A stretch of DNA of 54,896 nucleotides from sequence record NC_011356; one strand, 5' to 3'. Positions 9,001 through 12,000 of this stretch are shown one piece after another. Position 1 is the stretch's first letter, and each line of letters starts with the position of its first letter. This DNA comes from Enterobacteria phage YYZ-2008. Made by a program: the position numbers.

Positions 9001-12000
9001 AAATAGTACGATATGTACTTCACTTGGTCAATACAATTTGTTCTAAAACAGGGCGTTTTTTTACAACGCTTTGTATTTAATAGTATTGTTTTTTAGCGTG
9101 GGTGTATTGCCTCGGCGATGTAAGGAGAGATCAGAATTGCGTTGTTTAGTGAGTTGTATCTATTTATTTTCCAATAAATACAATTGGTTATGTGTTTTTT
9201 TGGGCGAGAGGAAAAGAAAACCCGGCATGGAGGCCGGGTTGATGATTAGCGGTGTGGCCTTGAGCGATAATGCTCACACACATGTTCAAGATTTCCATGC
9301 CTTATCCGTTCATAGGCATTCACATGAACTTCTCGATCGAATTGGTCATTCAAATTGTATGTAGACATCTGTGTTTTCTCATATTGGCGGCAGCCCTACA
9401 ACCGCTTGAAAAAATGTACCAGACGCGCTAAGGTTACATCGCAAATATTGTGTACCTTAACAAGGGCTCCTTTTGGAGGCTCTGGTTAAACAGCATCAAT
9501 GTCGGACTGGGGAGTTGGACATTGTGCTGAATGCTTTTGCATTATTGAGGCCGAACGTAAACCTTCAGAATTGAAGAGATGCGTTCGGCTTCTTCGTTTG
9601 TGATATCGTTAGGAATGCCTTTAATCGTTACTGTAACCCCTGATTCAGGTCGAAGAACTACTGGAAGATCATAGGTATGAAGTGCATTAGCCTTGCCTTC
9701 GACTTTTGTTGGTTCGCCAGTCAAATCTTTTTCCTCACTGGATTCTTTGTCAATCGGAGTGTATGGGATTTCTTCACCAGACTGGAAAGCTACAAACTTT
9801 TTGATTGCACTTTCCATGCGGCTTTTATATGCAGTAATGCTGCTGTCGCTAGGCTTCGGCTCAGTTGCGTTGATGTATCGCTCGGCAAGCTCATTCACAT
9901 CAAGCTGAGTAACATCACCCATTTCCTCTTCTTGGACTACCGTTAAGAGGCGAGCGGATGAGTTTTTTAAATTTCGAGCGGTGGCCTCCTTCATTATGTT
10001 CAGCGACATAAGCTCTTCAAGGAAGTCCTTGAATGCCTGCACGCTAACGTTTGACTTTGCCATTTGCTCTCTCTCCAAGTTATTGACTCAGATCGAGTTT
10101 ATCCAGGAATTGATTTGCATGCAAGACTCAAGTCTTGAGAATTTCCGTTCAAGATCCACTCTCAATAAAAAAGGCCGCACCTCTGCGACCTTTCATCTCC
10201 TAAATCTCTTTTCTCTTACCTAAAGAAACAGCAGGCTGGGTCAGCCCTAACAACTTCAAGTGCATCGGTCAGAGAAAGCTCCGTGCTATACAGGTGTTAT
10301 TTCATATCTTTTTGCATCCAATAAATTTTCCATCTGTCCAGAGAGCGGATGCACTTGATTCTTGTTGATGGCAGGACGTTTTTTCACCTGCCTCACCCTG
10401 CCATACAGGACGCTGCTCACCGATATCTATCGTCCGGTCATTGATGTTATAGACAATATCCAGATCATTACGGATATACTCAGATGGCCTTATGCTTTCA
10501 ATGAATAGATGAACTTCTTTTTGACCGCTTGATACTCATGGCCATTAAACTCCATCTATCCTCTTTACCCAAACGTCTCTTCAGGCCATTGGCTGGCGAT
10601 AACTTTCCCCACAACGGAACAACTCTCATTGCATGGGATCATTGGATATTGCGGGTTTAGTGGTTGTAGAAACACCTGACCGCTATCCCTGATCAGTTTC
10701 TTGAAGGTAAATTCATCACCACCAAGTCTGGCTATGCAGAAATCGCCGGGCTCAACAGCTTGCTCAGGGTCAACCAGAATTAACATCCCGTCAGGAAAAC
10801 TAGGTTTGGAACCTGTTGGTGCGGTCATTGAGTTACCTTCAACCTCAAGCCAGAATGCAGAGTCACTGGCTTTTTTGGTTGTGCTTACCAATCTCTCCGC
10901 ATCACCTTTGGTAAAGGTTCTGAGTTCTGGAGAGAACATCCCAGCCTGAACATGAGAAAAAACAGGGTACTCATATTGTTTTTTAACTGGGGCCGATGAG
11001 TATTCGCCAACAGGTGAAAATGTCCCGTCGTGGTTGAATGATATGTTATCAATACCAAGGTATTTAAACACCACACCAATATCACTAAGAGATGGATGAC
11101 GAGATCCGCGCAACCAGTGTCCAATTCCACCCTGCGTCATACCTAGCTCTTCGGCTAACTTCTCTTGAGTTATGCCGAGCTCTTTCATTCTGGATCTAGC
11201 CAGTTCATACCATTTCATTTTCATGTCCTTATTATTACGCTCTGTACTGGAACCATCCATGCACAATGTGTATTTTTACTTGTATTTGAGAAGTACATAT
11301 TGTATTTTTTATTCGTGGTTACTATGGAGGGCATATGAGCAACCTACGAAAATATCGAGAGTCACTGAATATCTCTCAAACAACACTTGCTAAGGCAGTT
11401 GGATGCACACAGGGAGCTATCGGACATTGGGAATCTGGTCGTCGCTTCCCAGACCTTAAAACATGCCGTGCTCTTGTTGCGTGTCTAAACAAGTTAGGCG
11501 CAAAAGTAAGTCTTGATGACGTGTTCCCGCCGGAGCACAAAGCCGCTTAATAAGCGGAGCCGCTCTTTGTAACAACGGACATTCGTCCTACGTCGCTGAA
11601 AAGCGAGTCCCAAGATATCTGACCAACTAAGGCCATATGCGTTTCCACGCATACCTTTCAACTAACTATTCACTATTGGAAATCTTAAGAAATGGAACGA
11701 ACAAGTTACAGCAAACTATCACAGCGCGACGTTGGTCGCGCAGAAACAGATTTACTCATCAACCTGTCAACGCTTACACAGCGCGGTCTGGCAAAGATGA
11801 TTGGCTGTCATGAATCGAAGATAAGCAGAACGGACTGGCGGTTTATTGCTTCGGTCTTGTGTGCTTTCGGAATGGCATCAGACATCAGTCCGATTAGCAG
11901 GGCTTTTAAGTATGCGCTTGATGAAATCACAAAGAAAAAATCCCCGGCTGCCACCGAGGATTTTAAGCAAATTGATATGCAATTCTGAGGGAATTACTGG

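Follow-up and report, generated by a model that had tools for sequence, protein, structure and literature searches.

Between the repressor gene cI and the early leftward promoter pL of Enterobacteria phage YYZ-2008 (NC_011356; the whole 54,896-nucleotide stretch analysed is referred to as the window) lies a cassette, at 9205..10190 on the minus strand, which is the subject of this work. It holds two genes, gene 1 (9542..10063, minus), encoding the 173-amino-acid (aa) protein ECs1184, and gene 2 (9246..9368, minus), encoding the 40-aa protein H0092, separated by a conserved and structured spacer, provided with a promoter and enclosed by two intrinsic terminators. The cassette is an autonomous two-gene accessory unit in the variable slot between cI and N of a Shiga toxin (Stx) phage of the VT2-Sakai/Sp5 type, and it may, as one possibility among several, be a module in which the first protein restrains a harmful activity of the unit itself.

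Anatomy of the cassette

The segment 9150..10250 is 99.9% identical to 42 records of Stx phages, including VT2-Sakai, Nil2, Stx2 phage 1717, phage 2851 and the PA series, and copies of the module with at least 99% identity occur in 233 of the 5426 complete Escherichia coli genomes, those listed being almost all O157:H7. In the AP000422 annotation the 173-aa gene is H0093 and the small open reading frame (ORF) is H0092, with pL at 9003..9031, the operator OL at 9004..9078 and cI at 10565..11218, and in the Sakai chromosome gene 1 is ECs_1184 and cI is ECs_1185, both within prophage Sp5. Gene 1 is also known as ORF23 of Sp5, ORF22 of Nil2 and phrog_2602, and gene 2 as the former ECs1183 and phrog_21154. 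All the elements that a first-pass annotation of this DNA had listed are in place where it had put them, and the gene at 9542..10063 is real; its description of the segment as more AT-rich than its neighbours is not borne out, as the G+C content of the cassette is 0.447, against 0.456 for cI, 0.422 for the cI-proximal remnant and 0.398 for OL/pL, and only the window mean (0.511) stands well above it.

The sigma70-type promoter proposed for the cassette (10096..10124, minus) is made up of a −35 hexamer TTGCAT (10124..10119), a spacer of 17 nucleotides (nt) and a −10 hexamer TAAACT (10101..10096), with a transcript start predicted at about 10089. It agrees with the consensus at 7 of 12 positions, and was not called by a generic scan in which promoter-like sites were no more numerous in the window than in shuffled sequences. 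Despite this, when the upstream regions of seven lambdoid loci from five genera were aligned, both hexamers were found in register, with a spacer of variable sequence, in the Salmonella, Proteus, Serratia and Cronobacter relatives (TTGCAA-17-TAGAAT in Proteus). It is because of this conservation across genera, and not because of any consensus score, that the promoter is held to be real, conserved hexamers being good evidence for it at the level of the sequence. The inverted repeat that had been noticed at the −35 is a perfect palindrome of the form 7-2-7 (CAAGACT-TG-AGTCTTG, 10122..10137) which overlaps the hexamer and is a candidate operator; the window contains no second copy of it at three mismatches or fewer, and it is identical in Salmonella phage Oslo and partly retained (AAGA...TCTTGC) in Proteus and Cronobacter. 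Taken as RNA, it folds no better than shuffled sequences (z +0.6).

The cI-proximal terminator (10163..10190, minus) ends the transcript of cI and of the gene remnant that follows it. Read from 10190 to 10163 it consists of AAAGGUCGCAG-AGG-UGCGGCCUUU and then UUUAUU, with an 11-bp stem of −17.8 kcal/mol (z −3.4), and its hairpin, AGGTCGCAGArrTGCGGCC, is kept in all seven aligned lambdoid loci irrespective of the preceding gene. The distal terminator (9212..9240, with its stem at 9219..9240, minus) stands just upstream of OL/pL; it was called by the scan, is labelled "terminator for pRM transcript" in AP000422, has −14.3 kcal/mol (z −3.7) from 9240 to 9219 and is likewise conserved in the relatives. 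A search of Rfam at E ≤1 over 8000..12000 gave nothing relevant.

In four of the related loci a LexA-box-like sequence, CTG-N10-CAG, lies between the upstream terminator and the cassette promoter, 126–184 nt 5′ of the homologue. The matches to the LexA box in the Proteus, Serratia and Cronobacter prophages are of 14–15 of 20 positions, and the Cronobacter site is followed by a short hairpin and a run of T; at two other loci, where the homologue is found behind dinI, a box of 17 of 20 positions precedes dinI. In the window and in Oslo, the 700 nt upstream contain no CTG-N10-CAG box.

The product of gene 1 and its family

ECs1184, with an isoelectric point of 4.85, is read from an ATG situated 7 nt downstream of the sequence GGAGAG (10076..10071), and its homologues begin at the same ATG. 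It has no curated match in Pfam, NCBIfam or PADLOC and belongs only to PHROGs of unknown function, its best Pfam match, Phage_int_SAM_1 (PF02899), being sub-threshold (E 0.047; 14.4 bits, where the cut-off is 22.3). At the level of the family the same signal is clearer, as 9 of 70 members match Phage_int_SAM_1, 4 or 6 at E ≤0.01 (the best at 3.6e-4). A word-indexed search retrieved only 44 relatives, from Enterobacterales; a HMMER profile search of 1.84 billion representatives retrieved 652 clusters (50% identity) at E <1e-3, and the 150 family matches that were listed have 110–238 aa and, in nearly every case, align over their full length.

The model obtained with AlphaFold2 for ECs1184 together with 70 diverse members (pLDDT 88.9) has an N-terminal domain of four helices at residues 8–94 (8–21, 26–40, 56–66 and 73–94), a disordered acidic linker at about residues 100–128, and a C-domain at residues 130–169 with two strands (130–138 and 143–151) and a helix (156–169). 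The N-terminal bundle can be superposed on the N-terminal domains of integrases and Xer proteins, and the N-domain is thus, on this model, of the core-binding (CB), SAM-like type of the tyrosine recombinases. The statement in the first-pass annotation that no motif could be recognised is superseded by this assignment. The invariant or nearly invariant residues are T28, Y79, S81, R82 and F90, in helices 2 and 4, and P134, R138, P151, D153, L154, E158 and A159 in the C-domain. ECs1184 is no recombinase, but a CB-type domain without the catalytic part: the protein stops at residue 173, there is no match to Phage_integrase, and no catalytic domain with an RHRY active site is present. The possibility that it was a copy of the CB domain of the phage's own integrase was also considered and rejected, as there is no significant similarity to that region.

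The C-domain is also found by itself, as free-standing proteins of 39–93 aa (profile search; phrog_36396), and its profile search gave only these small proteins and no informative fusions. Sequence-profile searches of the PDB, run for the entire family and for the C-domain by itself, returned chance matches only, so that the C-domain has no solved relative among them. Distant members of the family adjoin integrases or rolling-circle Rep genes in integrative elements, and in Yersinia phage YP3 the family member comes after xis and a 430-aa gene, near the integrase; a scan of genome contigs found one locus only. In some metagenome or genome contigs (L016/L018 and L029) the distant members are at the edge of integrative elements inserted beside rplU-rpmA, one of these with Rep_trans and a tyrosine integrase (a marine element has Rep_trans and an integrase) and another with a Y1 transposase-like gene.

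Gene 2 and the conserved spacer

The first-pass annotation had presented the cassette as a single-gene unit with a possible 39-aa ORF at about 9249..9368. The small ORF is real and conserved, as a 40-aa gene at 9246..9368, and with it and the spacer the unit ceases to be one of a single gene. H0092 is hydrophilic and rich in His and Arg; its identity is 95% with the copy of Salmonella phage Oslo and 87% with that of Cronobacter, and since most of the differences counted in the alignment are synonymous (nine, against six non-synonymous), it is under purifying selection as a protein. phrog_21154 occurs together with the gene 1 homologue in 47 of 47 phage records, and a homologue search with the 40-aa protein gave three near-identical matches. 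A further match, in Enterobacter phage ENT4 (E 0.06), falls outside any ORF and was treated as chance.

The 173 nt of the spacer (9369..9541, minus) are 92–94% identical to those of Oslo and Cronobacter, compared with 82–83% for gene 1 and 87–93% for gene 2, and have a minimum free energy of −54.6 kcal/mol (z −3.6). The loop of the main hairpin (about 9504..9517), between the arms AATGTC/GACATT, shows an exact inversion in Oslo, and in Proteus and Serratia different hairpins occupy the corresponding position. The spacer is likely to be a regulatory RNA or a leader. Transcription from a promoter-like site on the plus strand (TGGACA-18-CATTAT, 9516..9545) would yield an antisense RNA against the 3′ end of gene 1.

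Elsewhere in the family the small downstream ORF is of another kind: it is phrog_33859 in Proteus and in the marine integrative element, Serratia and locus L026 have a zinc-finger protein of 47 aa, and a contig of cyanobacterial type has a membrane peptide. A HicA-like gene that comes after one distant homologue was rejected as a toxin partner, because a HicB-like gene follows it and it is a mere neighbour.

The slot between cI and N

As the first-pass annotation had supposed, the cassette is a self-contained accessory unit in the position that corresponds to rexAB, and throughout the lambdoid prophages (E. coli, Salmonella, Cronobacter, Proteus/Providencia/Morganella and Serratia) the homologue of gene 1 always lies between cI and N. 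What surrounds it changes: the cI alleles beside the cassette, which are unrelated, number at least five (those of Oslo, SH2026Stx1, Proteus, Serratia and Cronobacter), and in some cases a DUF3024 gene intervenes. In other prophages the slot contains this DUF3024 gene, which corresponds to the PADLOC candidate PDC-S43 (E 7e-42 for an intact copy), or PDC-M24-like genes, and it is a hotspot for variable cargo with a flavour of defence. The 375 nt from the cI stop to the upstream terminator of the cassette (10191..10564, minus) are themselves a decayed DUF3024 gene, with 81–85% protein identity to the intact 113-aa copy of SH2026Stx1, an in-frame stop and frameshifts.

The prophage of E. coli Nissle 1917 is the most informative in this respect. 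Its CI (WP_001302016.1) and Cro (WP_000067727.1) have the accessions of those in the prophages of O157 strains NE92 and 4276, which match the cI region of the window at 99% or more, and its N is near-identical, but the slot contains a different cargo: a 185-aa gene and a DUF1828 gene, with weak to moderate matches to PDC-M24A/B, sieB being found beyond N. The cassette is not co-inherited with one particular set of cI and operators. Since the same CI and Cro exist in Nissle 1917 without the cassette, and unrelated cI alleles exist beside it, the cassette, and ECs1184 with it, is cargo and no component of the CI/Cro switch. This Nissle prophage may be homo-immune with the Stx phages of the Sp5 type.

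Two O157 strains provide natural dissections of the region. In strain 4276 an IS1203 occupies the exact junction of the DUF3024 remnant with the upstream terminator (about 10191/10192 of the window), so that the cassette is separated from pRM and yet persists. In strain NE92 recombination between two copies of IS1203 has deleted from gam through the upstream terminator of the cassette, taking out pL, N, kil, H0092 and ECs1184 and leaving cI-cro-cII-O-P, in a strain that is viable; the whole cassette can therefore be dispensed with if the pL operon is lost along with it.

Two other features of this neighbourhood may be recorded. The sequence AATAAATACAATTGGTT, at 9172..9191, resembles the half-sites of the OL/OR operators (by eye, it agrees with the reverse complement of OL3 at 12 of 17 positions; repeats D17 and I19). 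It is conserved in SH2026Stx1, and could represent an additional operator-like site, the fourth and a distal one, between OL3 and the terminator of the cassette. Downstream of N, ECs1180/H0090 (8222..8482, minus) encodes an acidic protein of 86 aa and is the only other gene of Sp5 for which a failure to delete has been reported; it matches nothing in Pfam or PADLOC and is not present at the non-Sp5 loci that carry the cassette, and it was rejected as a linked partner because it does not travel with the cassette.

Expression and published genetics

Gene 1, which had been taken for an undescribed candidate, was already in the literature, under the names H0093, ECs1184 and ORF23, as a gene that could not be deleted (PMC5155283). 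Working with MG1655 lysogenic for Sp5, Mondal et al. (2016) used sacB allelic exchange to construct 43 in-frame deletions free of markers, and those of ORF23 (ECs1184) and ORF21 (ECs1180) were unobtainable; they suggested that both genes are needed for stable lysogeny (PMC5155283). The design of these deletions retains the first and the last 9 nt of the ORF, so that the promoter, the spacer and H0092 would all have remained in place (PMC5155283).

The earlier supposition that the gene is expressed in the lysogen has support from two sources. In a study of 2025 that used TRAPP (purification of the proteins associated with total RNA), native ECs1184 was detected in the RNA-associated proteome of uninduced Sakai, at a false discovery rate of 0.065, and the tagged protein could be expressed from pBAD, its overexpression being tolerated in Sakai; its signal after labelling with polynucleotide kinase was no better than that of green fluorescent protein, so ECs1184 is not a strong RNA-binding protein (PMC7618764). 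In the RNA-seq and ribosome-profiling (RIBO-seq) study of Sakai by Hücker et al. (2017), the "novel gene" XECs114 (MEILNMCV...) has RNA-seq values of 452, 807 and 234 reads per kilobase per million (RPKM) in lysogeny broth (LB), brain–heart infusion (BHI) and BHI-stress, respectively, and RIBO-seq values of 135, 88 and 2.6 RPKM (PMC5597208). XECs114 corresponds to an ORF of 36 aa in the window (9188..9298, minus), which lies over the 3′ half of H0092, in a different frame, and extends across the terminator. This signal over 9188..9298 comes from uninduced Sakai, and so, without induction, the cassette is transcribed and ribosomes occupy its 3′ part. The footprints attributed to XECs114 may belong to H0092.

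A proposed function and its alternatives

The reading proposed here, tentatively and with a probability of about 0.3, is that the cassette is an addiction module, or one resembling abortive infection, and that ECs1184 restrains a harmful activity of the cassette. ECs1184 would be a nucleic-acid-binding regulator or neutraliser, in principle like FliZ, and what it would keep in check is most likely the small protein H0092, which would then be toxic. This could be achieved by repression of the cassette promoter through the palindrome at the −35, in other words by autoregulation, by binding of the H0092 peptide to the C-domain of ECs1184, or by both; an anti-phage outcome might also be expected of such a module.

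The reading is preferred because ECs1184 could not be deleted alone, while the cassette can be lost whole and the same repressor works without it, and also because an insulated unit that is expressed in the lysogen brings together a non-catalytic CB-type domain, a C-domain, a conserved small partner and a conserved spacer. The order of the genes, with a large acidic product first and a small basic one second, and the palindrome over the −35 resemble the logic of type II toxin–antitoxin systems; the small partner has been exchanged among at least three families while gene 1 remained constant, and the promoter and the flanking terminators are conserved across genera. FliZ offers a precedent for a repressor that consists of a stand-alone CB domain (PMC3367168).

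A number of points weigh against it. The failure to delete ECs1184, for which the authors state no reason, could be technical or have some other cause. The two genes are 173 nt apart and have no translational coupling, in the SH2026Stx1 subfamily a strong terminator-like hairpin comes after gene 1, and no small downstream ORF is found in Yersinia phage YP3 or at L029. Neither H0092 nor the alternative small partners matched a toxin model of Pfam or PADLOC. With regard to gene 1, the identity of 73% between E. coli and Proteus is far above the usual conservation of an antitoxin. Foldseek, which the first-pass annotation had proposed as a check, found no significant structural match to ECs1184 in the PDB or in BFVD, the fold class being drawn from the AlphaFold2 model and the SAM matches of the family, and hhalign comparisons with FliZ (probability 1.7%) and with the phage's own integrase were not significant. 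Finally, the N-domain has a net charge of −4 (the family median is 0), which is atypical for a DNA binder and tempers the idea that it binds DNA.

By analogy with rexAB or stk, ECs1184 might instead be an exclusion or anti-phage gene, expressed in the lysogen, acting on superinfecting phages and harmless to the lysogen itself, which was in essence the suggestion of the first-pass annotation. The rexAB slot, the orientation of cI and the promoter of its own would suit this function, as would expression without induction, the confinement of the family to prophages and integrative elements, and the PADLOC candidates that related prophages carry in the slot (DUF3024 as PDC-S43, and the PDC-M24A/B-like genes of Nissle). 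Against this, neither ECs1184 nor H0092 has a match in PADLOC-DB v2 even at E ≤10, the unit has two genes, and a pure exclusion gene should be deletable, which ECs1184 was not; in the literature searched there is no report of the cassette lowering the plating of a heterologous phage. This explanation is regarded as rather doubtful.

The view of Mondal et al. may be put in the form that ECs1184 is a co-factor of lysogeny, a second repressor of some lytic or lethal function of the phage outside the cassette. It would account for the failed deletion; it is nevertheless unlikely, given that the Nissle prophage has the same CI and Cro and a near-identical N without any cassette, that the cassette is a bounded module beside unrelated cI alleles and in non-lambdoid elements, and that the palindrome of its promoter is found nowhere else in the window.

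A host-directed regulator of the FliZ kind, acting on promoters of the host or of other prophages in a form of lysogenic conversion, would fit the fold class and the size, FliZ being a global repressor of 183 aa with a CB domain, as well as a family that is highly conserved across hosts and whose expression appears to be constitutive. The failure of the deletion would then be incidental, and neither it nor the conserved small partner and spacer would be explained; there is, moreover, no significant sequence relationship to FliZ, and the N-domain is acidic, so that little credence is given to this option.

Still less probable is a modulator of the SOS response or of prophage induction, which would act on RecA, LexA or the cleavage of CI, or tune induction in some other way. 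The gene is directly beside cI, and the LexA-box matches 5′ of the Proteus, Serratia and Cronobacter homologues and the linkage to dinI at two loci would agree with it, but the window and Oslo are without a LexA box, and ECs1184 has no similarity to DinI, Tum or the Gifsy antirepressors, with no Gifsy phage among the tblastn matches. That the dinI-linked homologue could be a Gifsy antirepressor or IrsA was likewise unsupported, GftA being a separate small ORF. The least credible proposal, that of a recombination decoy or accessory whose CB domain binds att core sites and modulates integration or excision, draws on the fold and on the integrases that adjoin distant members (YP3, the marine element), and it is held very unlikely, as gene 1 is about 8 kb from int in lambdoid phages, shows no significant similarity to the CB region of the phage's own integrase, and is associated in its family with many different integrases.

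If, on the other hand, the addiction or abortive-infection-like reading is accepted, ECs1184, H0092 and the RNA of the spacer might even constitute a new class of module, in which the CB domain would serve as sensor or neutraliser of a 40-aa effector, although this extension is itself improbable.

Significance

Both the locus and its unusual genetics had been published before, and the object itself is not new; what is new here is the assignment of the fold, the size of the family, the anatomy of two genes plus an RNA, the SOS boxes in the relatives, and the evidence that the cassette is cargo and not switch. It is situated at the regulatory centre of the Stx2a/Stx1 phages that E. coli O157:H7 carries, and a gene that resists deletion from its prophage has a direct bearing on the stability of that prophage and hence on the carriage of the toxin phage. 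ECs1184 founds a large family without a model in Pfam, NCBIfam or PADLOC, and would be the second known stand-alone use of a recombinase core-binding domain, after FliZ. If the cassette were indeed such a new class of module, the family of 652 clusters would be a widespread, unrecognised system on prophages and integrative elements, wired in part to the SOS response, and the module would lock the Stx2 prophage into its O157:H7 host; and if the function were one of ordinary exclusion, the cassette would still be another member for the catalogue of cargo of the cI–N hotspot.

Comparison with known systems

The rexA-rexB genes of lambda, stk of 933W and bstA of Salmonella phage BTP1 are cargo expressed in the lysogen and placed immediately downstream of cI. 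The cassette resembles them in its position between cI and OL/pL, its orientation (that of cI), the terminator before pL and its expression in the lysogen, as well as in belonging to a slot whose content varies between otherwise similar phages. It differs from them in that there is no similarity of sequence or profile, in that it has a promoter of its own, insulated by terminators and with no reliance on pRM, and in that its first gene is reported as non-deletable and has no known exclusion phenotype.

Among proteins related to recombinases, the integrase-like repressors of SPbeta and phi3T, MrpR (8a0a) and SroF (9rd5), contain the whole recombinase fold in about 320 aa, whereas ECs1184 has the CB-type domain only, and unlike in their setting, the lambdoid phage already has a repressor, CI. 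The resemblance to FliZ of E. coli is closer, both proteins being small (173 and 183 aa) and non-catalytic, with a helical domain of CB type as the main folded part (PMC3367168). However, this domain is N-terminal in ECs1184 and C-terminal in FliZ, ECs1184 is acidic and FliZ basic, and ECs1184 has an additional conserved C-terminal domain of a beta-hairpin and a helix.

With regard to the type II toxin–antitoxin systems, the cassette departs from them in the 173-nt conserved and structured spacer, in the unusual conservation of gene 1, and in the lack of any known toxin or antitoxin domain, its small partner belonging to no known toxin family. It is like them in being a co-oriented pair with a larger acidic product first, a small basic one second and a palindrome over the −35, in a partner that has been swapped, and in its location on prophages and integrative elements. 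The published failure to delete the first gene alone, set beside the natural loss of the whole cassette (which also removed pL, N and kil), may be a further resemblance.

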